A DNA stretch of 63,844 bases, counting the filler, from Psammoneis japonica (Eukaryota): the NCBI GenBank assembly GCA_008632985.1. It is 5 parts of 5 records of this genome, joined end to end, with 100 filler letters (N's around TTAATTAATTAA, not from the genome) between each part and the next. Parts side by side here need not be neighbours in the genome. Positions count along the whole stretch, not along the records: positions 1 to 13,983 come from QPGO01000547.1; positions 14,084 to 27,952 come from QPGO01000501.1; positions 28,053 to 41,825 come from QPGO01000502.1; positions 41,926 to 55,145 come from QPGO01000504.1; 1 more part is not named here. One strand, given 5' to 3'. Both the position numbers and the translations under genes were made by a program. The notes under the pieces were generated by a model. The model had not been told where the DNA came from. It was given only the letters and a program-made list of their open reading frames with translations, and made no database searches. This document shows positions 1 to 55,145 of this stretch, one piece after another. The number at the start of each line of letters is the position of its first letter. Positions within the stretch are counted from its first letter, which is position 1.

Positions 1-614
1 TGAAACTGTCACACTTGCATCTGAGATTCTTCATCCTCACACACCCTCAAAACCGAGCACATGACGATTCTCTTGTCGGCGGCGAAATCTGATGTTGTCG
101 CGCGACCCAAAAGCGCAGTCCATGACGACTCAAAGTGCGGGCGACACATCACAAGAATCACAGCAACGTGTCACAGAAACACTCTTCGTTGTCAGCATCC
201 GGTGTCAAGTGGATGGAGCAGCGCGTTGATGAGAGCCCCACTTCGCAAGCTGAGGAAGAGAGAAAGAGGCATCAAAAACATCATGAGTCAAAAGGCTGCC
301 CACAAGGCACAACAAAAAACAAAGATCAAATTTTCAACCACGCCGTCGCGTTGGGCGTTGTCTCATTGACCTGTCTCGGCATTCTTGCCTTCTCAGCCAC
401 AACACCCGAATGGACGAGTTCATGGTGACGGCATGGCGCCATTTTCGGTTTGCGCGAATTGTGGTTTGTGGTTCGAGACATGGAAAAATGTGTTTTCGCT
501 GTCATGGAGCTCGCTTTTTGCTGAGGTTTTTGGTGCCAAATGCACGTCTCATGTAGAAACACGCAGAAAACCTCGTGATGTGTCCAAAAGTTTCTCACCT
601 GGGATGAAAACACA
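1..614 (+). repeat. Dispersed direct repeat, copy A (may extend left of the window)
   Basis: Collinear with 8618-9241 (starts TGAAACTGTCACACTTGCATCTGAGATTCT); differences are mostly transitions. Confidence 0.92.
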
Positions 615-674
615 CCGCAAAACCAAGAATTGCGCAACATGGCTGAGGGCACAAAATCTCAAAGGTGCCCCCAG

Positions 675-997
675 CGAAAATGCGAAAATGCGAAAATGCG
701 AAAATGCGAAAATGNNNNNNNNNNNNNNNNNNNNNNNNNNNNNNNNNNNNNNNNNNNNNNNNNNNNNNNNNNNNNNNNNNNNNNNNNNNNNNNNNNNNNN
801 NNNNNNNNNNNNNNNNNNNNNNNNNNNNNNNNNNNNNNNNNNNNNNNNNNNNNNNNNNNNNNNNNNNNNNNNNNNNNNNNNNNNNNNNNNNNNNNNNNNN
901 NNNNNNNNNNNNNNNNNNNNNNNNNNNNNNNNNNNNNNNNNNNNNNNNNNNNGAAAATGCGAAAATGCGAAAATGCGAAAATGCGAAAATGCGAAAA
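675..997 (+). repeat. 8-bp satellite (GAAAATGC)n interrupted by an assembly gap
   Basis: Perfect GAAAATGC units on both sides of the N run. Confidence 0.95.
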
Positions 998-2357: not shown

Positions 2358-2962
2358 ACGGAAATGCGCAAACGCACAAAAGCGCAAATGCACAAATGCG
2401 CAAACGCGTGAATGCAGAAGTGCGAAAGTGCAAAAGTGCGGAAACGCGGAAACGCGAAAATGCGGAAATGTGGAAATGCAAAAATGCGGAAACGCGGAAA
2501 TGCGAAAATGCGGAAGTGCGGAAATGCAAAAATGCGGAAGTGCGGAAATGCGAAAATGCGCGAATGCGTGAGTGCAGAAGTGCGAAAATGCGGAAATGCG
2601 AAAATGCGAAAATGCAAAAATGCAAAAATGCGAAAATGCGGAAATGCGGAAATGCGGAAATGCAAAAATGCAAAAACGCGGAAATGCGAAAATGCGAAAA
2701 TGTGAAAATGCAGAAATGTGGAAATGCGAAAATGCGGAAATGCGGAAATGCGGAAGTGCGGAAAAGCGGAAGTGCGGAGGTGCGGAAATGCGGAAATGTG
2801 GAAATGCAAAAATGCCCAAACGCGGAAATGCGGAAATGCGAAAATGCAGAAATGTGGAAATGTGGAAATGCGGAAATGCAAAAATGCAAAAATGCAAAAT
2901 GCAGAAATGCGGGAATGCAGAAAAACACGAAAACACGGAAATGCGGAAATGCAAAAATGCAA
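2358..2962 (+). repeat. Degenerate 8-bp satellite of the same family
   Basis: ~600 bp of GAAAATGC/GGAAATGC/GAAACGCG/CAAAAATG variants; gives spurious (K/R)CGNAEM ORFs. Confidence 0.93.
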
Positions 2963-3189
2963 AAAGGGTCAGGCTTGGGTTTGGGGTTGGGGTTTGTTTC
3001 TGAATCTTTGGCACATGACATCTTGTCTGTCACACGACAATGTTTTTTGTGCGCTGGTTTCACAAAATGCAAAAAGGGTCAGGCTTGGGTTTGGGGTTGG
3101 GGTTTGTTTCTGAATCTTTGGCACATGACATCTTGTCTGTCAACATGACAATGTTTTTTGTGCGCTGGTTTCACGACAAGGTGTTGTGT

Positions 3190-3680: not shown

Positions 3681-4213
3681 AATTCACGCCGCAGTCTCTG
3701 GGAATTTGACAAGATGCGACAGAAAATGTTGGCGCGGCAATCAACAGGTTCCAGAAAATTGCAAGGTTGGTCTTCGCCAAATGCCACATTCAGCGACAGT
3801 GTGGCTGCATTCACTCAGTCCCCTCGAATGGACGCCAGCTTCGGCAGCATCAACTCGACCCTGTGCATCCGTGTTGCCGGCCCTTTCCAGGCCAGCTGAA
3901 AAAAACCATGTCTCGGGGTGGGCAAAACCATCTCCATTTTGGAAACGGAAAATCCCGGTTCGTCTGCAAGACGAAGCAATCAGCGGCGCCACAACTGCAC
4001 TGGGCTCGGGTGTTTTGCCCACCACTGGAATCACGCTCCTCACAAAATGTGACAAATTGACTCCCGGAGCCTCGGTCCGGGCATCAACTTGGCAAGAACG
4101 TCAGCGAGATTCATCTCGCCATCCTCCCAAGCAATGCGCACAATGCCAGCAGCCTGCACCTCACGCACCCGGTGACAAGCAATGGCGCTGTGCTTCTTTT
4201 TGAGTGTCGACTC

Positions 4214-4352
4214 GGGCTGGGGTTGGGGCTGGGGTTGGGGCTGGGGCTGGGTTGGGGTTTGGGGTTGGGGTCAGGGTTGGGGCTGGGGTTGGGGTCAGGG
4301 CTGGGGTTGGGGTTGGCGCTGGGGTTGGGATCAGGGTTGGGATTGGGGTCAG
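4214..4352 (+). repeat. Interstitial telomere-like array derived from (TTAGGG)n, every unit lacking TA
   Basis: 6-bp periodic array of TTGGGG, TCAGGG and CTGGGG units with no TTAGGG left. Short relatives lie near 2965, 3075, 11293 and 13960. Confidence 0.8.
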
Positions 4353-4696
4353 CACACACGTCTTTTTGGCTCGGTTTTGGGTCAGGGCAAGAGTCTGTGC
4401 ATCGTCCGTCAATGTTTTTGACCACAAAATGGCGACGTGCGATGCACAGACTGCCCGTTTGGGACCTTTGCTGGACCCATTTCGGTTGACGGGTGATGGA
4501 CAGACTGTGCCATTTTGGGACCAACGCTGGACCCATTTCGACCTGCAACTGGAGCTGCCAATGATTTTTGGGATTGGGTGCCAGTTTGCTGTCCACAACT
4601 GCAGTGTCATTTTGGCAAGTCAGCTGAAACACTGGGTGCACAAACACAGACGAATTTCAACATGAGCGGCGATTGTGGTTTCACACAATTGATGTT

Positions 4697-7600
4697 TCAG
4701 CCCGTCTTTCTCTTGCTCTGATTTCTCGCAGAGGAACGGGGCGTGTTCGCAACGACCCTCCTCGTTTTTTTTGACTTTGGTGGAGCAGCAAGGCCCTCTG
4801 TCTTTCTTTTCTTTCCGGAATCTGCTTTTTTCTTCTTGGCTTTGGCTTCCTGTCTCATCTTTTCCAAAAACAGATGACCCTCTGCCCGCTCTTGTGCTGT
4901 GGCAAATGTTTTGATGGTTGTCATTGCTGGGTCCCTTTCCTCCAAGGCAGCGACAGCTGCCTTTTGATTGCTGACGACAGGGAGTTCTGGTGCATCAGAT
5001 CCGTCGCTGACAACGCTCGCTGTTTCAGACTCTTGGTCCTGTTCGATTGCCTTTGGAAATCCTTTTGTGTCTCCATCATTGTTGTGCTCTTTGTTCTGGG
5101 ACAATTCTTTCCACACCTTTCCGCTCTGCTTTGCTTGTTGGCTTTGTCATCACGACCGTTCTTGTGAGAATTTTTTTCTGACGATCTCCCTCCCGTTTTT
5201 GCCTGCTTGCTCTCTTGTTGCCATCACCACGTTTCCCATCATCGTTGTTGCCTGACGACTCTGCATCCTCCTGCTCAACTTCCTCCTGGCTTTTCTCTTC
5301 ATCTTTGCTTCCCTCTTCTGCCTGGCTTTCCTCTCCAGCTTCAGACTGATCACCCTCTGAGGATTCGTGTGAATTCAGAGATGCAACGGGATCCTCAGTG
5401 CTGTCTTGTGATCCCTGCATCTCACCGTCGTCGTCTTGGACTGGAAAGGAGTCATGGTCTTGCACATTTCCAGAAATGTCCTGCCCAGCACAGGGTGAGC
5501 CATTTGGGTCCAGTGCTGGGTCCACATTGTCCAAGTCTTGTTTGTCTGCACAGCGTTTGAAAGGTTTGACGTGAGAAACGAAGACAGTGCCATTTGGGAC
5601 CATGGCTGGCTCCATTTCGCCTTTGCTCACCTGATTGAAATGCTTCGCATGACAATGTCTTCTGTCCCTCTTCAGACTTGCCTTCTTCTGCCTTCTGGCC
5701 ATCACCATGGCCCTTGTTGCACAGATGCAAGGTTGTCTTTTTCCGGCTTGTCGCTGGCTGCATCTTGTGCTGCATCACCATTCGTCGCATCTTCCTGAAT
5801 CTTGGTTCCTTCTGGGACTTTGCATTCATTGTCTTGAAAACTTTCAGAAATGATGCCTTGCTCATGTTCAACCGACTCGGCATTTTCTGCATCATGTTCA
5901 GAATCAACGTGTGAGGTGCAGACTGTGTCATTTTGGGACCATCGCTGGCTCCATTTCGCCCCACTTGCCTGACCGACCAGAAGCTCCTGTCGTTTCATTC
6001 GTCTTGACACTGTCAACTCAGGATTTTCCTGCTGCCTCGCAGCTGATGGCTGAGATTTGGCAGTCTGCTTGGAATCTCCAGTTTTTTGAGAATGATCGAT
6101 GTCCTGGCCTCTGTTGAACCCACCTTTGTTGAGCTCCAAGTGTTCACATCGGGAGGTGTTGAAATGACTCTGGTGGATGAGTGTTGCCTCGATCATTGCA
6201 CACTCTTCCGCTGATTTTGGGTCTTTGTGGGACTCATCAAAGTTGTTGCAGTCGCTGCAACTTTGATCCTCGTCAAACACAAATTTCCCTGCAACCTTGC
6301 CCCACAGTTTCTCTTTTTCTAATTGGGCGACAGTTCGAAACTTGATTTTGGAAGGGTCGGCATCTGAGCAATCAAACTCGTCATCGGTGTTGTGTCCCCT
6401 GTGGTGGATTTCATCCTTCAGCCGCTTTGGAGTCACATTTTTGTTCAGCTGCATGTGAGCAATGGCACAAGCAACAGCGCCACACTGTTTGTTCAACCCA
6501 GTGAATTCTGCCTTCAACTTGTGCGTCGCCTCTTCATTGACATCCGTTGCATCGATGGTCTTTGACAGGCACCTGCCAACCAACTGGCACATGCTCGAAT
6601 TCTTGTTCCACTTGCCAATTGATCATCCGCCAAAAAGGGGTTCGTGTGCCGGCATCGCTTTGGCTGCAGATCTCATGCCTTTTCGTAAATGCTGTTTTCA
6701 ACAAGAACGATGTCCAGCACCAACTCAGACAGGCTGCCACAAACGCTCCTTCCAACCTTGTGCTTTGTGCAAAAGGTGTTTGAATGTAAGGTCTTGATTG
6801 TTTCCTCTGCCACAAGGTTCCCTTTGTTGTCCACAAATTTAGCTTGCCCCTCCTCCTTGTCCATCACGGCGAATCTTCTGACAGAAACACTCAAGCTCTT
6901 TTCCTTGCTCAACCACTCACAGACAAATGCCGCCATTGTGGGAATGTTTGCCATGATGTCTGGGTCAGCCTTGCTTTTTCTCACCAACTCTCTGCATGAC
7001 TTCAAAGTGTCCTTGTCAAACATTGCTGCTTGTGCATCAGCGTCTTCTTGAGGTGGGTTCCCATGGTGAAAAATTGCACACTGTGACATGTGACAAAAAG
7101 TCACGGTCCACACAACTGTCAAGGATTGAAGCCTTGACATTTGTGCCTGTGATGGCAGCAAAAATTGCCTGTGAGAAGGGTGGTCAGGATCGCTGCAATT
7201 TGCGCTCTGACGTTGTTGCACTGGCTGACAAACAGCGCAAATGAGTCACATGTTTCTGGGTCACATGCTGCCTTGCAGCCAAAAGAAGCAATCTTTGCCT
7301 TTAGAGCCACCATGATGCACTGGTCTGCCAAATCAAACTCCGCATCACCATGGACAGTCGGGTCAGGGAGAAATGTTGTCAAAACTGCGCGATGATGTGT
7401 TTGAGCTCTTGAGAGCTCACCCAGCTTGAGACATCATGGCTCCAAGTCACCATGTTTGTCGCGAACTCTTCCTGATGCTGTGTCTGTGACTTGGCTTCGT
7501 CGTTGAATTGCCGTGGCCATCGTGCTTCAGAGGCAACATTCTTGACAAGAAAAAGTGTCTCTGGGACACTGACAGGATTTGATCAAGATTGACCAACTCG

Positions 7601-8197
7601 ACCAAATCCGACCCAACGACTTGAAAAATGCGACACCCAGAATTCGAGCCCAGGTCATCAAGTGACCGGTTGCCAACCAAACCATTCACCGCACAGTTCA
7701 AGTCGAGAGGCTTTTTGAACAAATGCTGCCATGACAGCTGAGAATTGGGTGTGAGACAAGACAGAGTGTTGAACAGCATCAACAGGTTCTAGAACTGTGA
7801 GATGTTGCGCCACTGGGGCCATCAAACAAGCAACAGTGGACCAATCGCCAACAGCAAATGAACTGCCCATGTCCGTGACAGCATGTCAGCATTCATTCAA
7901 CTCAGTCCATTCGACTTGCACGTCCCAGCCTTTGGTTGATGTGTTTTCATCCCAGGTGAGAAACGCGCACACGGAGGTGAGACGTTTCGTCTGTCCCTTT
8001 TCCGTCGCCGTGCTTTTTGTGCGAGCAAATCTGACTGGACTTTCCCCTGATTTTTCGTTTCTTCTTTCCACAGACATGTTTATTTTGAAAAGCCAGCCAT
8101 TGTTCTCATTGGTTGAAGGGTGCGTGCAAGAAAAGCGCTGTCTCAAAAGCGGCATTTTTTGGAGTGAAGCTGACAGCCATCTGCTCGTTGTTGTCAT
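4697..8197 (-). pseudogene. Decayed large ORF of unknown (probably TE) origin
   Basis: Chain of overlapping minus-strand ORFs (7886-8197, 6673-7221, 5702-6592, 5076-5708, 4697-5116) ending in an acidic then basic tail; no family motif recognised. Confidence 0.4.
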
Positions 8198-8617
8198 TTG
8201 AGAGACTGTCCCACTGTTTCTTTCACCGAATCTGACTGCTTTGAAAGAATGTGTGCATCATTCATTGTGTAAAGAGCTCATGCCAAAAAAGAACGGCGTT
8301 CTAACTCTGTTGTTTGCATGAGAAAAATCGGGGGAACTGACTTCGCACGTGATTTTTTGCGCGATCGGCCATTTCAAAGATCGACTGATTTGTCGACCTG
8401 TGTGGGACACTTGAGTGAACAAAACAACAGGATTGAAACAGTGGCATCAAAGTTCAATGTGTGTCCAGTTGTCATGTGATTTGACATGCCTGGGCAGAGT
8501 TGAAGATGAAATGTTGACAAAATTTCACCACTCAAAATGACTGGTTCTATCTTAGAATAAAACAAAATGGCTGCAACACTGGGACATCGCTGATGGCATT
8601 GTTCTGCTTTACAATGA

Positions 8618-9241
8618 TGAAACTGTCACACTTGCATCTGAGATTCTTTGTCCTCACACACCCTCAAAACCGAACACATGACGATTCTCTTGTCGGTGGC
8701 GAAATCTGATGTTGTCGCGCAACCCAAAAGCGTCGTCCATGACGACTCAAAGTGCGGACGATGCATTGTGAGAATCACAGCAACGTGTCATAGAAACACT
8801 CTTCATTGTCAGCATCTGGTGTCAAGCAGATGGAGCAGCACGTTGATGAGAATCCCACTTCGCAAGCTGAGGAAGAGAGAAAGAGGCATCAAAAATGTCA
8901 TGAGCAAAAAGGCTGTCCACAAGGCACAACAAAAAACAAAGATCAAATTTTCAACCACATCATCGCATTGAGCGTTGTCTTGTTGACCTGTCTCGGCATT
9001 CTTGCCTTCTCAGTCACAACATCCGTTGGTGCAAGAATGGACGAGTTCATGGTGACGGCATGGTGCCATTTTCGGTTTGTGCAAATTGTGGTTTGTGGTT
9101 CGAGACATGGAAAAACATGTTTTTGCTGTCATGGAGCTCGTTTTTTACTAAGATTTTTGGCACCAAATGTGCGCATCATGTAGAAACATGTAGAAAACCT
9201 CGTGATGTGTCCAAAAGTTTCTCACCCAGGATGAAAACACA
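8618..9241 (+). repeat. Dispersed direct repeat, copy B (less mutated)
   Basis: Matches 1-614 and keeps TA at 8791, 9146, 9149 and 9191 where copy A has CA/TG. Confidence 0.92.
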
Positions 9242-9319
9242 TCGGTCGTCCTCCCAGGAGCACGCCTGCCAGTCTCAGTCGTCATGTGCCCGTCATCGGC
9301 CGTTGCGGCATGGGCATCA

Positions 9320-13309: not shown

Positions 13310-13815
13310 CATCCATGGACAAAAAAACATGGACAAAGTGACGCTTCCAGACAATTTTTGCATTGAGAATTTGCCAGGGAAATGACTCACCCACAGACAA
13401 AGCAACACAGACATTTTGACACTGCCAAACAACAATTTTGTGAGCAAATGGGGAGGGAAATGAAACACCCATGGACAAACTGACACAGACATTGTGACAC
13501 CGCCAAACAAAAATTTTGTGAGCAAATGGGGAGGGAAATGACACATCCATGGACAAAAAGACACAGACATTCAGACACCGCCAAACAAAAATTTTGTAAG
13601 CACATGGGAAGGTAAGTGACACACCCACGGACAAACTAACAAAGACAAACTGACACCGCCAAACAAAAATTTTGTGAGCATGTGAAGAGGGAAATGACAC
13701 ACCCACGGACAAACTAACAAAAACAAACTGACACCGCCAAACAAAAATTTTGTGAGCAAATGAGGAGGGAAATGACACACCCACGGACAAACTAACACAG
13801 ATAAACTGACACAGA
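13310..13815 (+). repeat. 78-bp minisatellite, about 6 units
   Basis: GACAC(C/T)GCCAAAC anchor at 13418, 13496, 13574, 13652 and 13730 (period 78). Confidence 0.9.
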
Positions 13816-13983: not shown

Positions 13984-14083
13984 NNNNNNNNNNNNNNNNN
14001 NNNNNNNNNNNNNNNNNNNNNNNNNNNTTAATTAATTAANNNNNNNNNNNNNNNNNNNNNNNNNNNNNNNNNNNNNNNNNNNN
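13984..14083. other. Artificial contig linker
   Basis: 44 N + TTAATTAATTAA (stops in all frames) + 44 N. Confidence 0.98.
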
Positions 14084-27925: not shown

Positions 27926-27952
27926 AGCATGGCAAATTGAGCGCTTGCGCCG

Positions 27953-38422: not shown

Positions 38423-38689
38423 GCGAAACTTGCATTTTCGACTCTGCGTTGCCTCTGTGTTGGTCTTCGTGATGTGGCAAAATAGTCGTACTCGTATTTG
38501 ATATGTTGGCGTTTGAGAGTATTACGTGATATTGAGAAATAGCAGCTAAAGTCAACATTCTGTATCTTTGAATTGAAAACGAAATGAGTCTTTTTGCTCA
38601 ACGCTGTCTACCAAGCCGCACACTATCAATAGCATGGATTTAACACCCCGAAAGGATAAACCAATCACAGAAACCGAGCTAGCATTATC

Positions 38690-40135: not shown

Positions 40136-40292
40136 AGAGTCCGGTTTGTCGAAGTGCATGAGCTTGCCGACATGTCGATAGAGCTTGGCTTGTTCTATCA
40201 TTACTCTCATTTTTTAAAGAAACTCAAATGCACATTGACAAAGGACCTGGCAAAGTGATCGGCAACGTCAGAAAACGCCTTGGTTGCATCGT

Positions 40293-41479: not shown

Positions 41480-41825
41480 GGTGTCGAGAGTCATTCAGTG
41501 TTCAGATGAACTTCCACCTCTTTTCATTGGTTGCTTGGCGTTGCGTTCGCTCTCCACTCACTTGCACGACATGACGGTCCACGCAGATTGATGAGATGAT
41601 TCATTCATGGCCGCCGCCTGATGTTGCGGGTTTTTCATTTCATTCGGGTCGCGTCGTCGCGCGCTGTCTGTCCATCGTGAGTCTGCATGCGCGCTCGACC
41701 GTTTTAGCGCGCGCTTGCGCACACTCCTGAAGGGCCGGGTGCGACGAACGATGCGAATCGCGACCGTGACGAACCAGCGAAATCAACGCACCATGGACCA
41801 TGCTCTTTTGCTTTGCTCAGATGGT

Positions 41826-41925
41826 NNNNNNNNNNNNNNNNNNNNNNNNNNNNNNNNNNNNNNNNNNNNTTAATTAATTAANNNNNNNNNNNNNNNNNNN
41901 NNNNNNNNNNNNNNNNNNNNNNNNN
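41826..41925. other. Artificial contig linker
   Basis: 44 N + TTAATTAATTAA + 44 N. Confidence 0.98.
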
Positions 41926-43326: not shown

Positions 43327-46269
43327 ACTTTCAATTTTCAGATCGACATTATCTTGTGACGATCATCGACGCTTAGGCCCCTCTACTATAGGTTGTAGCT
43401 AAGCCTCTTCTAAGATCGCGGGAGTAAGTCGGGCCATCCGTCCGCGCCAAGGGCGTGACCTGTCATTAGTTTGGCCGATGTCCATAACTTTCCCGACGTA
43501 CGGTGTACATGCAGGAGAGGATGCGGGGAGGCAAGATGAACAGTCATTTGTCGAACACGCATGTCCACGACAGCCGTAGTTTGAGACAATCCGAAATCAT
43601 TTTGTGACATCGTTGTGTCTCAAACTATTTGGTTTGAAAGAAACTGGTTTGAGACAAAATGCTTGTAGACAACTGCTGTCTCAAACTGCACAGTTTGGAT
43701 GAGACAACTCAAGGCTGAAAGAAGCCAGTGTTGCCTGTTCCATTGTTCCAGTGCCCATGAGGCAAGACCATGGCATCGTGGATGTGAGAGGCATTGGTGT
43801 GAGATCCTGTCATTCATGTGATTGGTTTTCTTCACAACGGCATTGTTCCCCAAGTTGTCCCAAGCAAGAGAAATGAGGAGTGTGGTCCCCAAGCCATGAT
43901 GGCAGGAACAACATCTTTCCCCAAGTGGCCCCAGGAGAAATGAGGAGTTGGGTCCCTGCCCCCTGAACCAATGGCAAAAAACTGCACATGGTCAAAGGAC
44001 ACTGCACATGGCCAAGAATGTCATGTGCCACATCTGTGTGGGCCTCAAGGGCAAAACTGGAAGATGGCAGTGGTGGTGCTCCAGCAAACAGGAATTTCTT
44101 GGCCTTGCAATGGTTTCAAGCATGGACAGCTCTGTGGCTTTGTCACCAACATGGGAGTTGGGCCACACTGTTGGTGCCTTTTAGGATGAGCAGCACAGGA
44201 ATGCTGTTGGCAACAACAGCATGACTTGCAAGTGGATTGTCCAACCCTGGTGCTAGAATGGACAGGTGCAGAACTTTCAGCATGATGGAGCTTGGGACCA
44301 CCACAAGAGCCACCGGGTGGCAAGGATGGACGCAAGCTCAGGGGCTTCCCATGGTGGACATTTGGTGGACACAACACAAAGGGCTGCAAGATGGAGCACT
44401 TGATTCCTGACCCTCAAGCTGAAAAAACACAGCCTTTGTCCAAGACACAGTGTGCAGAGGCAGGCCAGAGGCACTCAAATCTTGAGCACTCATTGCAAAG
44501 GACTCTGTCTCTCATTTCTGTTTGCATTTTTTGTTGCAGCCAGTCATTTTGGTTATGATGCCTGCATGCAAGATGTGGACATGGTGCTGGCAGCTGCCAA
44601 TGGTGGCTTTCTCATCTTGTTTTGTGGCTCTTGGGGCCATGTCCTCTGCTGCCAGGGAGAGACCGACATTGCAGCCCAAATCAAGTTGGATGGCAAGGGT
44701 GGTCAGCACACACAAGACCATGATGCACCAACACACAACTGGGGCAGCACTGATGGCAGGAGCAACATGTGAGCTTTGAAAACGTTGAGAGTCTCAGAGA
44801 GCACAAGTTTATCAGCAGTCCACTGGAAGAAGATGAGCCAGCAGAAGCAAGTTGAGATGTCACCTGGTGCATCAAGCAGGATGGAGAATTCCCACAAAGC
44901 AGCCAGAGCAGGTGCTCTCCTGTGGGATTGATGTGCTTCAATGGAGAGCAGCTCAAGTTGGGTGCCAAACTGAGTTCTCTCTAAAGTGTTTGCCTTGTCT
45001 GGTCTGTTTGTCAAGGATGAGCTCAGAAACTTTGCCATGACAGCCACTGACAAGGTGGTGCTGCCAAGCATTTCTGTTTCTCTCATCAGGTCATGGCCAT
45101 CAATGACAAGTGTGCCCTTCTGATTCTTCAGGCCAAAAACAAGAGTGACACTGGCAGCTCTCAACCTCTTAAAACAGATTGGCTGGCATGCAAAAACACT
45201 GATGGTTCATGTGCAAATGAGCCAGCAAAACTGTCCCCAAAATGACTGTGCAAATCATCAGATGTGTCATGACTTTGCCTTGTTGGAAAGACATGTGTGC
45301 TTGATGGAGAGACAGCACCCTTGTCAGAATCATGCCCCCATGCAAACTGCTGTCAAGAAAGGCATTTTTGCTTGACAACTGACTCAACAAAATGGAAGGC
45401 AGAAAATGATTTCCGGTCACTCGCTGTTTCAGCCTTGAGCCTTGGGATGGTTCCCAATTGTGCACACTTCTGCAAACAAGCAAACATGCTTCTCTCGTTG
45501 AGAGACAACTTCAACATGCTTGGGTGAGCAAGTGTGGTGGTGGGGGGGNNNNNNNNNGGGGGGGGGCAGCACAGAGGGTGGCTGTGAAATTGTGGAGTTC
45601 AGAGCTCCCACTCTTTCAAAATCAGCTCCTGACACATCACAGGGGTTTGCACAACTTGCACACAAAATGCAGCAATGAGGAGGTGCAGCTGGTCTTTCTG
45701 CCTTTGTTCCCTCTGGCTTGAAACTTGGCCATTCTTAAAAGATCTCTTCACATGACCATTGATGCATGTGTGCAGTTGGCACAATGCAACCGTCAGCGGT
45801 GGTTGACATGGGAGCAGCAATGACAGTCATGGGTGAAAAAGAGCTGTGCAGAACCCCACCTGCAGCAAGAAGCACCAAACCACCTTTCATCATAAAGTGA
45901 CGTGCCATTGTCTGCCTGCAGAGAAGGGTCAAACATTTCTCTTGTTTCACTTCATCATTTGAAAAGTGCAGCAAACAACGTGCACAGAGAAATTTGGCCA
46001 GATGCGTGGCCCACTTTTGATCCCTTTTTTCCAATGCACCTTGAGCTTGACTCCAGTGCTGATGGTTTGTCTCTCTTCCTTTTGTCAGAGTTGCTTCAGC
46101 ACTGTTGTGGGATTGAAATTGGTGGCACAGGTGTTGCCAGTCCACAGGTGTTGTCAGTCAAGCCTGGAGGTCCTCGGGTCAAATTGAGCACATCTCTTTC
46201 ACCTGGAGAGTCCATGTCACTCTTGTGTCTTTGAGTGCAAGAAGTTGCCCATTCACTTGGTTGGGGTCA

Positions 46270-47430
46270 AGACCATGGCTGTTGAGACAGATGGCAAATG
46301 CTCATCCTCAGAGGACCAGATGCAAACAGCTGCCCCACAAGTGCACAACAGCAGGAAAGGCAATGGCAAGGAAGAAGAAAAGACAGAGTGGGGAGGTGGC
46401 TGGAGATCCACCAAACAGCCCAAGGCTGGCCATGGCATCAATGTGGGTGGGAGCCAGTGGAGATCACCAGTCTACAAAGAGAGAGGTTCAAGAGGTGACA
46501 TGGAGAGAACTGTTCCCAAAGGCAAAGTTCCTTGTCAAGGCAGACATGGCAAGCAGTGGCAAAGTGTCATGGCTCATGCGGAAAAAGATGGCTGGTGGCA
46601 GTTTCAGCAAGGACAGGATTGCAGGAAGACTGGGCAAAGAAGAAAGGAGTGCATTGTGAATGCAGTCAATGCAAAAAGGAACACTGTCACTCAGATGACA
46701 ATGAAGAGTGCAATGGCTGGCAAGTGTTTTTGAGTGAAGTGATGCTTAACACGACCCTTCTTTGGTGCAGTTGTGATGACAGAGCAGCAAGCCAAGGAAT
46801 TGTGCAGTCAGAAGAGAGCTGCTGCAGAAAACCAAAGGAGGAAGAGGAAGAAGAAGGCACAAGTGGAGGATGAAGAACCGTTCCTCCTGGCAACTTGGGA
46901 GGATGAGACAGTGGACACCATTGTGGGGGAGAAGTGAAAGAACAAGGAAGCATGTGCATGGTTCTACAACGACGTCCTTAAATTCATGAAGACTGCAGTG
47001 TGGAGAAAGAAGGTGGAGCTGGGTGAGACCAAGGCTCCAGATCTAACTGTGGCAAGCAACAAGGCTCTGGGGCTGTTGACATTGGAAAACCACTGGAAGA
47101 TTTGGGAGCACAAGGCCCTTCATGACAAGATTGTTGGAGGGGGAGCAGACACAGGGGACAAAGAGGAGGTGCAGTTGAAACCATCACCCAACTGCATGGA
47201 CCCAATGCAACAGCGTGACTCATGGAGTGATGAAGGAACACTGTGGTTCAACACCCCACTTGAGCAAGTGAAGGAGGGCAGGGCAAGTGGGGAAGGTGTG
47301 CAGTTCAACACACATGGTGCAGCAGCAGCAAGAAGAGGGAGAGCAATGAAAAGGGCAAGGAGCAAAAAAAGAAGAAAATGCTGGTGGAGAAGGAGGCAAG
47401 GAAACAGGCAACAACAGAGCTTTCTAGTGA
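46270..47430 (+). pseudogene. Decayed ORF of a probably TE-associated family
   Basis: ASNKALGLLTLENHWKIW...SWSDEGTLWFNTPLEQVKEGR resembles an uncharacterised SDEAxxLLxxEN...GWSxEGxxxFN family; recognised from memory only. Confidence 0.4.
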
Positions 47431-50400
47431 CAATGAGGAGGACAAGGAAAAGAGGAAATGGAAAAGGACCAGAGCAACAAGGACAGCAAAGAAGAGGAAG
47501 AAGGAATTGAGACATTGACCAAGAATGAAGAAGATGAAAAAATGGGGCAAACTCTGGTGCAGAAAGGGAGCAGAGCCTGTTGTCAATGTGAGATTGGAAA
47601 ACAGCAAAGCAATGCATTGGTGTTCATTGAAAACATTTACAAACTGGGAATGCAGCAATTCAGTGTTCATTGAGAGATGTTTCATGCTGTGGATTGACAA
47701 ACAACTTGTGCCACACATTCCAAAAACAACATTGAATGTGTTTGTTGGCATCAATTGTTTTTGTCAAAAGGCTTTTTAAAGTCAAAAGTCTGCGGGCAAA
47801 CAAGGAAGGCAATCTGAAGGGGAAACAGGGTGCATTTTCACAGTTGATGGTTTTGTCTCATGGGACATGATGGTGGGGCTCCACAGCAACATTTTTTGTC
47901 TTTCATGTTTGATGAATTGTCACCACACACACAACTGTCAAGGTTTGAAACAATGGAATTTTGTGCTGCAATGGATTAAAAAATGACTGGGAGCAAGGTG
48001 GTCTGGATCACAGCAGTGCATGCTCTGATGAGGTTGGTTGGTGCTGTCATGGGGTTGTTTGCTTTGCTCTGGAGTTTGGAAGTTCAAATCTAATCTTGTT
48101 GGGGATGAGGTGACAAGGGGCCACAATGCCACAAGCAAGATCAACCTTGCAGCACCCTGCAACAGTTCTTAGAGTGTTTCTTGTCAGGGTCTGCCAGAGA
48201 ACACTGGTGTCTTCTGCTGGCAATTGTTGGGTTGGTTGGTGCACCATTGTGGGATCCCAGCATGCAGCAGACTTGGCTTTCTGCTGCTGTTGGGAACAAG
48301 GTGACATGGGGCCACATTGCCACAAGATCAACTTTGCAATGCTCAGGCACAGTTCTCCAAGTGTCACCTGGGGTCCACCAGAGACCACCGATGCCCTCAG
48401 CTTGCAGCTGTCAGGTTGGCTGGCACCATTGTGGGATTCATGCTCTCTGGAATTTTTGCAAAAGTCAAGTCTGTCACTGTTGGGGACAAGTTCTCAAAGT
48501 GTTGCTGGAGTCAACTGGACATTGCCAGCACACTCAGCTTGCAACTGTCCTCAGGTTGGTTGACACCATCATGGGGCCCTTTTGTTCTTGAGTTTGGAAG
48601 TTCAAGCATGCTGCTGTTGGGGACAAGGTGACACCGGGCACAACATCACAAGATCTGCACCCATGGCCAGCCAGATGCTGTGTCAGTGTCCTCAGCTTGC
48701 AGCTGTTGGGTTGGTTGGTGGCATGGCCATTGTGCATGTGTGAATCAGCTGCAAAGCAGCCCCACAGACACAAGCAAGAAACAAACTGCACGGGCCAGCA
48801 CAAATTGACTGTGATCACAGAAACTGAGAAACCACAAAGCTTTTTCAAAAACACATGCACTGCATCTGATGGAAACAATCATGTTCAACATGATCCAGCT
48901 GCTTCACAAATGACAACCTGCAAGCAAAATGCTTTGGCGATGAAGACCAACAACAAAATGATTCATTGAAGTTGACTCAAATGATTTGAAACTTTGAAAA
49001 TTGGGAATGCAACACAAGGCTTAAAACAAAAAGAACAACTTGCAAAATGACAAAGGCAATGAGTGATCACCAGGCTAACCAGCTCAGCTCCATGGCAAAA
49101 AGGCACATCATTGTGCCACACAAAGCAACACAAAAACACAAGATGCACCCAAGCAGCACACAAACAATGGCGACATTGCAGGAAGGTGCCAACAACGCAC
49201 CAGGACCATGCACACACCAACAAAGAAATGCCATGGGAGAGGTCAAAAGTGCAACATGGGAGCTGCCAAATGACAACAAGTGGAACCTTTTGCACTTTTT
49301 TTGTTTCTTGAAACTCAGGCAAGTTGGCAAAAACAGCCAAGGACAAGAAACAGAGTGCTGCAACATTGCGCACAGGTGTCAGCAGATTGTGCCACACTTG
49401 CCAAAGAAAACATGCCAAACAGAAACTGTCCTCTGCCAGGGAGTTTTGCTTCCACATCATCTCACAATGAAAAGCTGCAAATTTCAAACCTCTCTTTTAA
49501 CACTGAACATGAGATGCTCTCACTGATGCTTCTGTTCCTTTGACTGCAACACAATTTTGCAGATGAGCACAATTGTGGTCTTGCAATTTTTGTCAAACAC
49601 ACCACTGTTTGTGGCTTTTAAAAACTTTTCAGCAATGAACAATCCAGTTCACACATCTCTGTGATTTTGTGATTCATTTCCAACTCCGATGTGACTCAAG
49701 TTGAAGGTGCATTTCTCATGGCTCCTCAGATTGATCCTGTGCATGATGCTGTGCCAGATGTCAAGTCTCCACAATGCTTTTGGGCCATGTCTGCACGGCC
49801 ATTGCTGTGATTTTGACAAAAATTCTCATCACCCATGAAATCAGCAATTTCAAGATGGATTTGTGCAGACATGGAACACAAGTCAAGTCGACCATGGGAT
49901 TGGTTGTGGTGGTGGCAACATTTAACACCAAATGCAAAAAACACCTGGAGTGCATGTTAAAACCTCATCATGATCATGAGGTGGCTGTGGGCACTAAAAC
50001 AAGGGATCTTCATTCAATGCCTTCAATCATCATCTGAACTTTTTGCTCAATTTCTTTGTTCCTTCTGCATCTGACATGACAGCAAATGTTTTGAAGGTCT
50101 AAAGTGGGGTGCACTGTGCAGGCACCCATGACTTGGACATGTTCAATGAAGATGACACAGAAAGGCATGAGCTCTTTCTTTGGAAACATTTTCCATGTCA
50201 AAAACAAAAGCAAACGGCAATCCTTGCTTTCAAGATCGTTTGTGACAATCAAATAACTCAATGCCGCCTTAATCCATCCAAAAGTTCAATCAATGGCTCA
50301 AGCGCCTCACTCCATGCCTGAATGAGACAATCCTAGGCAGTTGTCAGGTGCCAAAAATCTGTGGGAGTTTCTGAGGAGCCACAAGCAGTTGGACCTTGGA

Positions 50401-53079
50401 TCCTGTGATTGTGCCAGCTCCCACCAAATTGATTCAGAGCATGGCTTAAAATTGTTCATGTTGTCTGCAAACAGGCATTTCAAGCAGTCAATGCTTCTAA
50501 GATTGTGGGATCAAACTGCAGAAAATGCTGCCAGTGACAGGCAAATGACAACAGCTGGCCGGAACCTTTCTGTTGGACACCATTCTCATCATTTTGCATG
50601 TGCTGAACGATGCATCATTTTTTAACAACATAGATTGAACACTTTGTAGAATGGCACAGGAAGCATCTGCTGTGCAGAAGGATGTCCAGCATGAGCCATG
50701 GCAAAAGTCAACAAACACAATTGGCAACATTGAAGCCCAGAAGTGGGATTGATCCAGTTCTTGGTGTGTGCAGGCCAGTTCTCTCTGCAAGGCTCCAAGT
50801 GCTGGAAATCATTGCTGCAATGATGAGAACAGCTTTGTTAAAGATCCAATGACAAACAAGCATGGACAGTGCTTTTAATTGCCAGTTGCAACTGGGAGTC
50901 ATCTCCCATCTTGCAAATTGTCTCCAGTGGCAGATTCACAGAATTGTGGGTCCACCAGCTTGCGGGTCCTCGCATCCTTGAATTGCTCTTTTGCTTCCTT
51001 GCCTTGCCCAAAGTTGCTTCCTTCATTGCCACAAGGTGCTGCACAATCATTGAACAACACCTTCTCCAGGATTTCTCCACATTCTGAGTTGATCAGGCAG
51101 TTGCAACAGGACCAAGGCAATGGATGCACTTTTGCATGAGCTTTTGGCTTTGGCTCAGAATCACCTCCCATGACAGTTGGGATGTTTTCCCCTTCATCTT
51201 GATCACAAATGTCAACAAGGGATTGTTCTTCCATGCCACACCTTCAACAATGGACCTTGAGAACATTGCCTGAAGTTGTTGGAAGCCGCAACAATGGGTG
51301 AAACATGTTGGCGACAGCAAAAAAGTCATTTTTTGCTCTGCAAGTGGCAAAAGCAGCAATGTTTTGGCACAACATGTTAGATGCATGAGTCAACAATGAG
51401 ATCAAACCAATGCATTGTCACTTTTGATGCAAGAATGCAAGCAACAATGTTTTTGCTGATGAACGGCAACTCACCATTTTTGTTCAGCAACTTTTGTGCA
51501 TTTTCTGCACTGAAGCATGTTGGAGGCAGATCTGAAATCTCTGCCCCCCAAAAAGAAGGAAGTTTTTCAGTGCTGCCGTAGAATCATCTACATGGAAATG
51601 ATGTCACAGTGCAAAATGCCATTTTTGCACAGCAGTGTGCACTCTGCGAGCATCGTGTCTCCTGCATCTGTTGTGTTTCCTGTGAGAAAGCCATCCACAG
51701 TGGTTGCTGTTGGTTCCCTGGCATCACATGCCAAATTGGCGGAACTTCCCCAAGAAGTCAAGGATGTCTCACTTCAACCCCCAAGCATTTTTTGTGGCAA
51801 CTCCATTGTTTTGTGCAATGCAGCATCATTCACAAGACAGAGTGATTGTCCTCTCTTCCCAAGATTGAACCAATGCTGTCACCAACTCCAATGATGTTGT
51901 TGTTTGATGTGGANTGACTGCGGCCACTGCATGGACATGCACCCATTCCCTCAACTTCAGATTTTTGGCATGGCCATCATTGATTTTGGATCTGCAACAC
52001 CACCAATGCCTCCATTGTCCAAACAAGACCAACGGCAGTGGGGCAATTGTGCAAGAGGGCCATCGAGGTTTGTTGCCATCCACTCTCCAACTCTTCCAAC
52101 TGCAACTTGCCACGCACAAACATGATGGATCTGGTCACATCCACCCCCTTGGTTGCAGATGATGATCCAAGCCTGTCTCTTCAGAAGACATCAAAACACA
52201 GCACCAAGCATGAGAATGAGTTGGTGCAGCACACAATTGACTGCCATGACATGCCCATGATGGGCATCCCTTTGCACAGTGTTTCAGCTCAAACGTCACT
52301 CACAGTGCATCCATTTTCTTCCAACATGGACACAACTTGTGGCTCTGTTCCCTCTTCTCATTCAAGCATCCATGTTGGATCAAGGTGCATTGCATCCACT
52401 GGTTTGACTGGTGTGTTGTGTGTGCCATCTTTTGGCCATTTCTACCTTCATGTTGACACTTGCATCTTGCAGTTTTGCCATTGCTTTCAAGTGATTGTCC
52501 TGCAAGACATGTCCAAGACTTGCCAAAATGTCTTGACAAATGCCTTTGTTTGTCACAGGGCCACATTTGCAATTGTCGTCATCCAAGGACCACCACCCCA
52601 AGCCTTTCAATGACTTCAACTGCAAACCACAATCAACCGACATTCATTCTGCTTTTTTTCTTGAAGAACCTTTGTCATTGATGACATTTCATCCAATGGC
52701 ATCCACTGCAGTTGCTGTTGAGCCTCTCCCACCATCTGTGAAAGACTTGTGCAACACTTGCGCACATTGACTGGGATTTTCTCATGACTTTGGAGTGTTT
52801 GCATGATAGAATCACTCTCCTGCTCCTCAAGAATGCCACAATGGCAACAGTTCTCCAAGATGCATCTGGCCTGATCAACCCCAAAACTGCTGGCACTCCC
52901 GATGTGATGCAAGTTTGGCCAATTTTTGAATCAACTGCTCTGAGCATTGATCATTTGGGGGCATCAACAACACGTGCTGATGATGCACTTGGTGTGGATG
53001 CTCAGATGGATCCCATGAGTGCAAATTCACAGGATGTCAAGTCTGCCATGTCTGACATGTCTGACATTTAAAGTTGGTG

Positions 53080-55145
53080 CTGGCCGGCAATCTCTTCTCA
53101 GCAGCCATTTGACTTTGAATCCCACTGAACAGTCCCACCCGTCTCCCAGGGCCGGGAAACAGTGGCACCATGCATGCTCCTTTTCTGCAAAGACGATTCA
53201 TTGGAATTGTGACATCCTCCAGGACAGTGGGCAGTGCTGGCAACCAAGGTGCGCATGTCCCACACAGCACATTACAAGCCTTCAGAAGACTGTCTCTGCA
53301 TTTGTGCAGATTCAGGTTTTCAGACATTTCCAGTGATCAATGGACGCGCTGTGACTGCAGATGCTTTGGAGACAGTCTCCAATGTCTCTCCTGCAGCTTC
53401 CCCAGCATTGGCACATGCCATTTGCACCAGTTGTTGGCAAACAACTTCCCCAGGCACATTGGTTTCCCTGCATCTGCTCCTCTGGCTCCCAACAATTTCA
53501 TGGCAATGTTGCAATCTCTCCCAAATGGGAGTCCTTGTTGTTTGGTGATTTGACCACACACACGTCAGTGTTTGAGACTGCAGACCTGCTTGTCCATCAT
53601 TGTGCCACTGTGGTCAGTGATGGATCTGTTCTTAATTTTCTGGGTGCATTTGGTTGGACACTTGCAGTTGACGGCACTCCATTGGTGGATTGTGCCGGCC
53701 CAGGCAACTGGTTTTCGTCCATCATCTTACCCAGCCGAAGTGCGCGGAATGTTGTCTTTCCTCAATTTCTTGTTTCAGTTGATGCAATGTTGTTGCAAAA
53801 TGCTTGCCAAAGGTGCGGACATGCACTGTGATGACTCCTCGCTTGTGTGCAATGTTTCCAATTTCCGGGCTTCTCCCTGTTTTGCCAATGATGAGGCAGT
53901 TCAAGGTGCCAGAGACTGTCAGCAGCAACATCACATTGCTGGCACTCTCTCCACAGATTGGGATGCATTGCATGAAAGTTTTCATTCCATGCAACAAATT
54001 TTGAAATGTCTCATGATGAACAGCATGGCACCAATGTCTCTGTCCACCAGGTCAAGGGACACCAAGATGACATGACACCCATGGATTCCTTGGCCTTGGC
54101 AGCTTGGTTGAATGTCAGAGCCAACAGGCTGGCAGGGCAGTGCCAAGGTCATTGCTTTGGAGACATCCTGTTTGTGCCTTGCATGCCTCATTGCAATGCC
54201 AACCTGATTGTCAATTGTGCCACAATGTCAGCCAAGCACAAGCCAGTCATTTGATGTGATGCATCCAGCCTGGCTCTGGTTTGTCACATGAAAGACAAGC
54301 ATGGATGGTCTGACAAAATCTGTGGATGATCAATTGGGAGGCACGTGCCAAGCCAATGTCTTGAAATGTCCACCGGAAAGTTGGCGCTGTCAAACTGGTG
54401 CAGGAACTTCTCCCAACAAACAAAACTGTCCACTGGTGCAACCCCACTCACCCAGATTGCTGCATTCACTGTCAAGATCCAATGGAAGACAGAGACCACA
54501 TTCTTTGTTGTCCACACAATGAGGCATGGCACCAAACATTTCTACAAGGACTGTGCAAGAAGTGCAATGACATCTGTGCATCCCCATCTTTACGTGATTT
54601 GATTCTTTCTGCCATGAAGTCATGGTTCCAAGTGGAGTTGCTTTGCACCAATGACCTTCATCACAGCGTGGTGTCAGTCTTCCAGTCTCAGGAGCAAATC
54701 AGATGGCATCAGCTGTTCAATGGATGTTTTTCCAAAGCTTGGAATGTGACTCAAACCTTGCATCTGTTGACAAGTGGCACTCATCAGAGCCTCTCTGAAC
54801 ATGAGAAGAGATTGGATTGGGCAGCTGCCATCGGCAATTGCATTTGGGAGCAGTGGTGGAGTTGTGGGAAAACGCTTCATGGTTCAGAAACAAGGCAGTC
54901 CTCCCAGCGTTGGGGTGCCAAAGTGGAGGTGAAAGCTGTGTGCTTGAGATCAGACGATTGTCTGGCAAGAGACAGGGTGCATCTGTTGGATTCGGTTGAA
55001 GAACATTTGACACATTCTGCACATTGTCTCTGCAATTGGCTGGCTGTGGTCAGGCCAATGATTGAATCAAGCATTGGAGAAGCAAAATGGTTTGCTGCAG
55101 GAGGCACGAGAACTATTGCAAGTTGTTTTGGTGTGGCATCACCCT
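53080..55145 (+). mobile_element. Non-LTR retrotransposon 3' part: RNase H-like domain and Cys/His knuckle; hypermutated
   Basis: VVSDGSV...GAFGW...SSYPAEVRGML, HQVKGHQDD, LNVRANRLA, CIHCQDPMEDRDHILCC, QEQIRWHQLFNGCFSKAW. Confidence 0.82.

Follow-up and report, generated by a model that had tools for sequence, protein, structure and literature searches.

TpA-poor transposon and satellite DNA in Psammoneis japonica suggests targeted A:T to G:C transition

Fungal RIP, found in Neurospora and other species, changes C to T, mainly at CpA, thereby making TpA and stop codons and lowering GC content, and requires both duplicated sequence and a sexual phase. Selfish elements can also be disabled by the clustered, deaminase-made transitions of APOBEC3/AID and of ADAR hyper-editing, the latter enzyme acting on RNA duplexes with a liking for a 5' U and a preference for a 3' G. 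The natural target of the deaminase TadA is A34 in the loop U-A-C-G, which corresponds to TAY, and the evolved TadA of adenine base editors acts on adenine in DNA, leaving hypoxanthine that is then read as G; for its eukaryotic counterpart ADAT2/3, the base following A34 may be A, G or C. To our knowledge, no natural TadA or ADAT has been shown to edit chromosomal repeats.

The closest described system is that of the chlorarachniophyte Bigelowiella natans, a rhizarian in which T/A to C/G hypermutation occurs only at TpA (Mettrop et al., bioRxiv 10.64898/2026.01.13.699255). In mutation-accumulation lines of this alga, 230 of 231 mutations in two integrated viral regions were A to G or T to C, all at TpA, with the real-time mutation rate raised about 1000-fold in some lines only (10.64898/2026.01.13.699255). 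The genome carries TpA-poor, CpA+TpG-rich clusters in which RT and DDE domains are enriched, and the candidate agent is a homologue of ADAT2 (10.64898/2026.01.13.699255).

Here we describe a stretch of Psammoneis japonica DNA, 63,844 nucleotides long with filler included and referred to as the window, in which what looks like the same type of signature is found in a second, distant lineage, near saturation in transposons and satellites. The host appears to be a diatom (a stramenopile), judging from one housekeeping exon on the fifth contig and one transposon homologue, and a search of the literature found no report of such TpA hypermutation in diatoms. The original prediction for this DNA knew of no described system of the kind, a view that the B. 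natans preprint (10.64898/2026.01.13.699255) has rendered out of date. As far as the preprint's main text describes it, the rhizarian case resembles the present one in three respects: T/A changes to C/G at TpA only, with TpG or CpA as the product depending on the strand; the changes are restricted to foreign or selfish DNA adjoining a normal genome; and a long-term TpA-poor, CpA+TpG-rich footprint results, in which many affected ORFs defy annotation. TpA frequencies are also similar, at 0.0018 in the low-TpA coding sequences of B. natans and 0.0016-0.0043 in the blocks described below. The two differ in host, in that one is a rhizarian and the other a diatom, and in targets, those measured in B. 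natans being an integrated giant virus, which still has 3.3% TpA, and a virophage, whereas transposons, satellites and unclassified repeats are affected here, near saturation. A dependence on the 3' neighbour and a joint decay of CpG, both features of the diatom DNA, are absent from the preprint's main text; conversely, live mutation rates are available for B. natans, whereas the diatom case is known from sequence footprints.

Depletion of TpA in repeat blocks

The window consists of five P. japonica contigs (C1, 1-13983; C2, 14084-27952; C3, 28053-41825; C4, 41926-55145; C5, 55246-63844), joined by fillers of 44 N, TTAATTAATTAA and a further 44 N. TA-poor blocks take up the whole of C1 (1-13983; 39 TA, rho TA 0.046, rho CpG 0.65), the whole of C2 (14084-27952; 22 TA, rho TA 0.026, rho CpG 0.67), the left part of C3 (28053-33850; 22 TA, rho TA 0.057, rho CpG 0.38) and the right part of C4 (43667-55145; 49 TA, rho TA 0.062, rho CpG 0.13). 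Together, the blocks on these four contigs span 44,790 nt and contain 132 TA, whereas 2,870 would be expected by base composition (rho 0.046). The gene-bearing remainder of the window is normal, with 718 TA in 18,165 nt (rho 0.576), and at that frequency 1,769 would be expected in the blocks. The depletion is therefore real, and the original observation of almost TA-free repeat blocks beside normal genes, including its counts of a single TA in 1-660 and 20 in 34081-34380, was reproduced. Every 1-kb bin of the blocks has a TA observed/expected ratio of at most 0.15, and their longest TA-free run reaches 4,955 nt, compared with a median TA spacing of 15 nt and a maximum of 300 nt in the normal parts. 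By contrast, CA and TG are over-represented, with a rho of 1.54-1.84 in the blocks versus 1.10-1.22 in the normal parts, each figure being the mean of the two rhos rather than the summed-pair Rho formula of the B. natans preprint. The long ORFs at 18835-20601, 24890-26446 and 26648-27952 lack any Tyr, as first noted, and Tyr makes up 0.08% of ORFs of at least 200 aa in the blocks versus 3.34% in the normal parts.

Lying within the blocks are the remnants of a MULE-like and of a Copia-type element, together with satellites and high-copy repeats, and the flanking genome is normal. The satellites comprise a TA-free 8/16-nt array of about 75 copies of the unit GAAATGCA (2359-2965) and a 78-nt repeat present in 5.6 copies (13376-13812). 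On C3, the edge of the TA-poor domain lies within 33848-34004, the final sparse TA being at 33848 and TA recurring about every 15 nt from 34004, and the gene-bearing flank that follows, used as a control (34000-41825), has a rho of 0.61 for TA and 1.11 for CpG. On C4, TA are dense up to 43666 and the following one is at 44182, placing the edge (43666-44182) some 340 nt downstream of a GST-like ORF that ends at 43323. The fifth contig (55246-63844) is normal throughout (rho TA 0.55) and carries a HisC-like gene with GT-AG introns, by which the host is placed among diatoms.

Of the explanations considered, an artefact of assembly, polishing or sequencing, or contaminant DNA, is the least probable. 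Both domain edges are sharp, C3 and C4 each hold TA-poor and normal DNA, and an error process would ignore the borders of repeats. Contigs rebuilt from the public run X1, which goes some way towards the check in raw reads that had been proposed, show 0 differences over 29436-33687, at a depth of about 33 there and of 30-59 in the gene part; this agreement and the gene-like depth make an assembler artefact unlikely, albeit that X1, the sole read-level check, is probably the source sample and hence not independent.

The same comparison bears on the likeness to RIP, with which the diatom footprint shares irreversible chromosomal point mutation of selfish DNA, a dinucleotide context, saturation, and skewed blocks beside normal genes. 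Very high copy number is seen in X1 at 28053-29432 and 33573-34032, and the TA-free stretch 29436-33687 is at single-copy depth when copies are counted at a likeness of at least 90%, older and more diverged copies being possible. RIP needs duplicates, whereas this stretch, with that proviso, has been changed to the same extent; the repeat dependence implied by the initial description of the process as a reverse RIP is not supported by this comparison. The outcome differs too: the diatom blocks lose TpA and stop codons, and their GC content is unchanged at 47-51%.

Direction and context of the change

The direction of change was examined in two protein remnants. The first, a MULE-like (Mutator superfamily) transposase remnant of 435 codons on the minus strand at 26648-27952, has 171 homologues (best E 1.5e-111), including P0016 from the diatom Entomoneis, and a PF10551 match below threshold in two of 14 of them. 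The second, a Copia-type polyprotein remnant on the minus strand at 9151-10365, spans the integrase end (rve, E 0.043) and the region before RT, and has three homologues, one with a precomputed PF07727 RVT_2 match. Searches of the window's own ORFs against Pfam at E <= 0.001 recognised no transposon domain, such that these two identities are supported through homologues only. Thus, among the target classes originally named, Copia, MULE and satellites stand, and the LINE call was not borne out, Pfam giving no match even when E values up to 1 were allowed and the Atlas only a zf-RVT lead (0.89).

Among 153 MULE-like protein homologues the median Tyr content is 3.5%. Tyr is shared by half or more of 30 homologues in six columns, and at every one of them the MULE-like ORF has His (three) or Cys (three), for which the chance probability at the C+H content of the ORFs is about 9e-7. 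In alignment with P0010, the closest intact relative, the ORF has seven Cys, three His, two Phe, one Arg and one Leu, and never Tyr, at the 14 Tyr positions of P0010. Likewise, the 11 columns of the Copia-type ORF with Tyr in at least two of the three homologues read Cys six times, His twice, and Phe, Arg and Ile once each. Conserved Tyr codons (TAY) of each protein have accordingly become Cys (TGY) or His (CAY), and one site of the 78-nt satellite varies between CTAA, CTGA and GCAA from monomer to monomer. In each block, the gain in CA+TG (0.047-0.084) is of the order of the loss of TA+CpG (0.055-0.088).

An alternative would be that these families have always been TA-free, or have been purged of TA to evade a nuclease that reads TA or a transposon that targets it. 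This has very little probability, as TA-poor DNA was seen at none of 51 environmental loci coding for relatives of the MULE-like protein (rho TA 0.32-0.86), conserved Tyr, probably of the catalytic region, have been replaced by the one-transition products Cys and His rather than by Phe, and the loss extends to satellites, which are non-coding, and to dead copies; neither would an artefact yield Tyr to Cys or His. The scarcity of TA thus reflects directed change to TG or CA rather than native composition, because of the Tyr replacements, the absence of TA-poor relatives and the mass balance. These results agree with the original reading of a change from TpA to TpG or CpA on both strands of chromosomal DNA, confined to repeats and near saturation.

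The few remaining TA are unevenly distributed among contexts. Counts in the blocks and in the normal parts, respectively, are 1 and 236 for RTAY, 25 and 205 for YTAY, 27 and 163 for RTAR and 79 and 114 for YTAR, the best survivor (Fisher p = 2e-24); scaled to this baseline, which is one of host gene regions and not of ancestral elements, survival is 0.002, 0.05, 0.07 and 0.28. It is roughly multiplicative, as for two independent strand targets, with 6.8 RTAY predicted and one seen. The wider motif is 5'-TAY-3', the adenine of which is changed on either strand. As this rule predicts, a purine precedes the codon at five of six Tyr-to-His sites, compared with five of 11 Tyr-to-Cys sites, although both numbers are small.

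Other dinucleotides are spared. AA/TT is undepleted in the blocks (rho 1.21-1.35 vs 1.18-1.20 in the normal parts), as is AT (0.84-0.89 vs 0.91-0.94), and GC content is 47-51% vs 47-48%, indicating that the general AT-to-GC shift that might have accounted for the footprint is absent. These figures also bear on a Pol-eta-like, error-prone polymerase, one of the agents first proposed, which would place G opposite T during repair of repeat chromatin and so change WA to WG. Pol-eta is known to make A-to-G errors at TA, and to that extent matches, but it also makes them at AA, which is undepleted, and the 3' neighbour rule, with TAY affected far above TAR, differs from a WA rule; such an origin is very improbable.

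Candidate agents and proposed mechanism

A targeted, DNA-level, strand-symmetric process, making A:T to G:C transitions only at TpA in diatom transposon and satellite chromatin, is the probable source of this footprint. Each TA would become TG or CA, the preferred target being the adenine of 5'-TAY-3' (opposite the thymine of 5'-RTA-3'), until the favoured contexts were exhausted, and the process would halt within a few hundred bases of adjoining genes. Action at the DNA level is supported by the presence of the change on both strands and by targets that include a DNA transposon and satellites. Known cytosine-directed systems would not suffice: APOBEC enzymes change C, not A, and methyl-CpG decay, which has the same products, TG and CA, and is present in the blocks (rho CpG 0.13-0.67), is unable to remove TpA.

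Editing of transposon RNA by an ADAR-like enzyme, changing A to I beside U, with subsequent reverse transcription and re-insertion, would accord with the 5' U preferred by ADAR and with a retroelement, the Copia-type ORF, being among the targets. However, the MULE-like DNA transposon and the satellites are just as TA-free, Tyr-to-His changes, which are T to C on the sense strand, are found alongside A to G, and unclassified DNA at single-copy depth has been changed up to a sharp edge; we know of no ADAR in diatoms. This route is largely refuted, and we give it hardly any credence.

Since the adenine of TAY is paired with the thymine of RTA, the footprint fits attack on either equally well. A JBP/TET-kind enzyme might oxidise the T of 5'-RTA-3' to 5-hydroxymethyl- or 5-formyl-uracil in silenced chromatin, with mispairing to G then giving T to C. 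In dinoflagellate DNA, 5-hydroxymethyluracil occurs preferentially at TpA and TpC, and 5-formyluracil mispairs with G, but we know of no report of a modified thymine of this kind in a diatom. The authors of the B. natans study favour adenine deamination, without proof (10.64898/2026.01.13.699255), and thymine attack seems improbable.

The candidate agent that we favour, with rather less than even confidence, is a TadA/ADAT2-like deaminase acting on DNA, where it would turn adenine into hypoxanthine, although the tolerance of ADAT2/3 for different neighbours of A34 does not predict the TAY rule. As anticipated, no effector gene was identified within the window, the deaminase domain being absent from 57 ORFs of at least 90 aa in the normal parts and 120 ORFs of at least 120 aa in the blocks. 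Such a process would be enzymatic and targeted, and may serve genome defence. The change erases all Tyr codons and TAA and TAG stops, and presumably TATA boxes and AATAAA signals, and so cripples elements without creating new stop codons. A more doubtful extension is that distant algal lineages share a chromatin-guided enzyme, whether inherited by descent, transferred or evolved convergently, that deaminates DNA adenine at 5'-TAY-3' and so leaves transposons, satellites and integrated viruses permanently rewritten; were this true, it would be an adenine counterpart of RIP and APOBEC, and a DNA adenine editor of natural origin.

CpG decay and duplicated sequences

Joint depletion of CpG, a point missing from the original prediction, accompanies the loss of TA, the rho of 1.01-1.17 in the normal parts falling to the values given above in the blocks. 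In each block, TA loss is the more complete of the two. Methyl-CpG decay has acted on these blocks as a separate, second process and is not the source of TA loss; ordinary decay of the methyl-cytosine type would run alongside the TpA process, which makes it probable that the chromatin of the blocks is silenced and methylated.

The relative timing of the two can be gauged from a tandem duplication on the plus strand (14084-25844), in which 14084-19831 and 20093-25844 have an identity of 99.0%. The two copies show 40 differences, 27 of which are CpG versus TpG/CpA and only one TA versus CA; TA loss therefore predates the duplication, and CpG decay is ongoing. A more diverged plus-strand pair, 1-614 and 8618-9241 (89.6% identical), has CA in one copy and TG in the other at 11 sites, which can originate from an ancestral CG or from TA; one copy retains TA at four sites and CG at 13. 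The most CpG-decayed block is that at 43667-55145.

Extent and edges of the TA-poor domains

The TA-poor DNA comprises all of contigs C1 (1-13983) and C2 (14084-27952), C3 (28053-41825) as far as approximately 33850, and C4 (41926-55145) from approximately 43667; C5 (55246-63844) is normal. The joints between contigs (13984-14083, 27953-28052, 41826-41925 and 55146-55245) are artificial spacers, each consisting of TTAATTAATTAA flanked on either side by 44 N, and TAs within them were therefore left out of the counts. Pooled across the four blocks (44,790 nt), 132 TAs are present; base composition alone would give 2,870, and the TA density of the normal, gene-bearing parts, which have 718 in 18,165 nt (observed/expected ratio, rho, 0.576), would give 1,769. 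The rho(TA) of individual blocks is 0.026-0.062, and CA and TG have rho of 1.54-1.84 in blocks, compared with 1.10-1.22 in normal parts. The longest TA-free run extends over 4,955 nt, the median spacing of TA in the gene parts being 15 nt. The counts behind the original prediction, which proposed a transposon-targeted hypermutation of TpA to TpG/CpA, are exact: one TA in 1-660 and 20 in 34081-34380. A point it did not stress is a shortage of CpG in the blocks as well, with rho of 0.65, 0.67, 0.38 and 0.13 compared with 1.01-1.17 in normal parts. The domains end sharply, at 33848/34004 in C3 and 43666/44182 in C4.

The depletion is real and striking. An artefact of the assembler or of polishing is unlikely, because contigs built separately from the public sequencing run X1 match 29436-33687 with no differences at a depth of 33-36, alongside 30-59 in the gene part; 0.89 of the window's sampled words are present in this run, which is probably the source sample and hence not independent. 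Judged by X1 depth, some of the TA-free sequence is present in a single copy at a likeness of at least 90%, and very high-copy repeats occupy 28053-29432 and 33573-34032, with a summed depth of approximately 4,000-13,800 versus approximately 33 for single-copy DNA. The latter repeat lies exactly at the edge of the C3 domain.

Two further observations concern the gene-bearing part of C3. A 432 nt unit is present in 2.5 copies of 97% identity at 36777-37856, inside open reading frames (ORFs) immediately downstream of the SUMO-like (Rad60-SLD) ORF 36101-36958; its TA content is normal. Contigs from a second run, X2 (listed as 'DNA?'), omit parts of 34551-41200 in a splice-like manner; this run may be RNA, and its contigs cover few bins of the TA-poor part.

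Identity of the repeats and polarity of the change

By the genetic code, the proposed change would remove each Tyr codon and abolish TAA and TAG stops, while creating no new ones. In the blocks TAA and TAG are gone and TGA alone is left, giving rise to many long Tyr-free ORFs. Tyr, Cys and His make up 0.08%, 5.15% and 4.62%, respectively, of block ORFs of at least 200 aa, compared with 3.34%, 2.35% and 2.68% of those in the normal parts. For instance, a Tyr-free ORF of 519 codons on the plus strand at 24890-26446 has a sub-threshold match to the zinc knuckle zf-CCHC_3 (E 2.9e-4, 21 bits versus a cut-off of 27), and shares its first part with the ORF at 18835-20601 through the 5.75 kb tandem duplication found in C2.

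Conventional profile searches recover little from these sequences. No transposon domain was found by Pfam at E <= 0.001 in the 120 block ORFs of at least 120 aa, in which the sole matches were the sub-threshold zinc knuckle and two low-complexity ones far under their cut-offs, nor in C2 when translated through in all six frames, with X for stop codons. At E <= 1, 43 ORFs gave one relevant match, a weak similarity to the integrase core rve (E 0.043) in the minus strand ORF 9151-10365. Among 1.84 billion representatives, HMMER found 171 matches at E <= 0.001 to the minus strand ORF 26648-27952, the best being the protein P0010 (E 1.5e-111, 54% identity); another, P0016, is from the diatom Entomoneis. 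The MULE family PF10551 was detected sub-threshold in two of 14 homologues tested (22.6 bits versus a cut-off of 27.6). For ORF 9151-10365, three homologues were recovered (E 8.8e-91 to 8.2e-51), among them one with the Copia-type reverse transcriptase family PF07727; no relative was found when this ORF was scanned against viral contigs. MULE-like and Copia-type elements, predicted originally alongside satellites and a LINE, are thus upheld by their homologues. Satellites are likewise present, with units of 8/16 nt (2359-2965) and 78 nt (13376-13812). The LINE assignment is not supported: ORF 54365-55144 has no Pfam match, and an Atlas search returned only leads, to a zf-RVT cluster (0.89) and a diatom cluster (0.92). 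The TA-free DNA of C1 also contains TTGGGG-like arrays (unit GGGTTGGGGTTGGGGCTG) at 4214-4349 and 2954-3174. TTAGGG-type sequences are a telomere repeat, and these arrays could be interstitial copies in which TA was rewritten as TG.

The homologues reveal the direction of the change, since under it TAY, encoding Tyr, can only become TGY (Cys) or CAY (His). All six columns of the MULE-like ORF with Tyr in half or more of the 30 homologues compared now contain His (three) or Cys (three), and the 14 Tyr of P0010 align to seven Cys, three His, two Phe, one Arg, one Leu and no Tyr. Similarly, the 11 columns of the Copia-type ORF in which at least two of the three homologues have Tyr are occupied by six Cys, two His, one Phe, one Arg and one Ile. 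The MULE-like family is not natively TA-poor, because rho(TA) is 0.32-0.86, and never below 0.3, across 51 environmental loci coding for relatives, and the median Tyr content of 153 protein homologues is 3.5%, with only two below 1%. One homologue, P0057, has a single Tyr in 363 residues and 6.9% Cys and His combined; it could be another mutated copy.

The nucleotide sequences agree with this polarity. The gain in CA and TG per block, 0.047-0.084 of dinucleotides, matches the combined loss of TA and CpG, 0.055-0.088. Monomers of a satellite have CTAA, CTGA and GCAA variants at one site. Between the paralogues at 1-614 and 8618-9241, CA is opposed to TG at 11 sites, with TA kept by one copy at four and CG kept by one at 13; the 11 sites are consistent with an ancestral TA struck on different strands, although an ancestral CG would look identical. 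The Tyr columns, the mass balance and the TA-normal relatives together bear out the predicted direction, TpA to TpG/CpA.

Context, specificity and candidate agents

The few surviving TAs are not a random sample. Those left in the blocks and normal parts, respectively, number one and 236 for RTAY, 25 and 205 for YTAY, 27 and 163 for RTAR, and 79 and 114 for YTAR (R, purine; Y, pyrimidine), with a surplus of YTAR among survivors (Fisher p = 2e-24). Scaled by length, survival is 0.002, 0.05, 0.07 and 0.28 in the same order, a 170-fold spread far beyond what composition could explain, the baseline being host gene DNA and not the ancestral elements. The counts agree with a model in which each strand of a TA presents a single adenine, in a 5'-TAN-3' context, and is affected independently of the other: loss of the TAY adenine is approximately five times more complete than that of TAR, and 6.8 RTAY are expected to remain where one was seen. 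Consistently, a purine precedes the codon at five of six Tyr-to-His sites, in which the T changed, and at five of 11 Tyr-to-Cys sites, numbers too small for a test.

Relative to normal parts, the blocks are not depleted in AA/TT or AT, and their GC content is unchanged, as anticipated for an excess specific to TpA rather than a general AT-to-GC bias. General AT-to-GC drift and GC-biased gene conversion are thereby ruled out. A Pol-eta-like polymerase, one of the agents first suggested, is disfavoured, as its WA to WG signature would include the AA/TT that has been retained. Unrepaired UV damage was also rejected, on the reasoning that it should leave a dipyrimidine C to T signature that is not TA-specific; moreover, untranscribed spacers beside genes still hold TA.

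The order of events can be read from the C2 duplication, whose copies are 99.0% identical. Of their 40 differences, 27 oppose CpG to TpG/CpA and one opposes TA to CA; hence TA was exhausted before the duplication, and CpG decay has been ongoing. Loss of TA is the faster process, being near complete even where that of CpG is modest, in C1 and C2.

Signature, polarity, context and confinement are established from the sequence, and so is action on DNA, as the original prediction held. The change would be made by an enzyme guided to silenced, probably methylated, chromatin, as suggested by how sharply the domains end, by CpG decay and by the inclusion of single-copy stretches. These stretches would argue against a strictly repeat-pairing trigger, such as that of RIP. 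With every Tyr codon and the TAA and TAG stops removed, no new stops created and TATA and AATAAA signals probably lost as well, elements would be disabled in a manner contrary to that of RIP. The favoured agent, put forward tentatively, is a TadA/ADAT2-like enzyme deaminating adenine to hypoxanthine. TadA's own target, U-A-C-G, fits TAY. The main rival is oxidation of the paired thymine, which sequence cannot separate from adenine deamination.

Host and precedent

The host can be placed by a HisC-like aminotransferase gene on the plus strand of C5 (56785-58100), which has two canonical GT-AG introns of approximately 100 nt each. Among the best 120 matches to its 177 aa exon, the top identity being 75%, 13 carry some organism label. 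Eight have readable names: Cylindrotheca closterium (74%), C. fusiformis, Seminavis robusta, Fragilaria crotonensis, Nitzschia sp., Bacillariaceae sp., Eucampia and Thalassiosira exigua. Four are partial (Thala-, Gra-, Lepto- and Helico-) and one is a CCRYP identifier; we take all 13 to be diatoms. Since only diatoms are found among its closest named relatives, the host is a diatom, one whose proteins are not annotated in the database searched, and not Bigelowiella. An Atlas search with this exon yielded no taxonomic information of use, and a glycosyltransferase ORF has relatives of at most 63% identity, none carrying an organism name.

To our knowledge, the well-studied mutational genome defences all act on cytosine (RIP, APOBEC/AID). 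Removal of TpA by A:T to G:C changes has a single precedent, a 2026 preprint on one rhizarian alga, Bigelowiella natans. In mutation-accumulation lines of this species, 231 of the 302 single-nucleotide mutations in the nuclear genome lay in integrated giant-virus and virophage regions, and were nearly all A to G or T to C, such changes all being at TpA, at a rate of approximately 6e-7 per site per generation, and confined to some of the lines (10.64898/2026.01.13.699255). The preprint also describes 324 coding sequences poor in TpA, among which RT and DDE domains are enriched, and 124 clusters that are TpA-poor and CpA+TpG-rich, and names an ADAT2 homologue as candidate agent; a term search of its main text found no mention of trinucleotide context or of CpG (10.64898/2026.01.13.699255). 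The normal-part frequencies observed here (TA 0.037-0.041, CA+TG 0.137-0.152) equal its coding-sequence means, which raised the possibility that the DNA was that of B. natans itself; the diatom relatives of the HisC-like exon reject this. The original view that no such system had been described no longer holds, the kind having been described once, in another supergroup. A literature search, with coverage excluding most subscription journals, found no diatom report of TpA loss and no naturally occurring deaminase of DNA adenine with a role in genome defence.

The signature is the same as that described for B. natans, but here affects the transposons and satellites of a diatom, has reached saturation and shows a sharper motif. 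This suggests that the process is not a one-species oddity, and widens its target range from integrated viruses to ordinary repeats. Any candidate enzyme should reproduce the TAY/RTA motif, and a comparative search becomes feasible for genes that both algae possess and that diatoms lacking TA-free repeats do not. Base editing has so far depended on laboratory-evolved TadA, and the agent, if truly a natural DNA adenine deaminase, would be of interest in this respect. TA-free blocks also mislead gene finders, through false ORFs of 400-590 codons, and allow transposons to escape profile searches.
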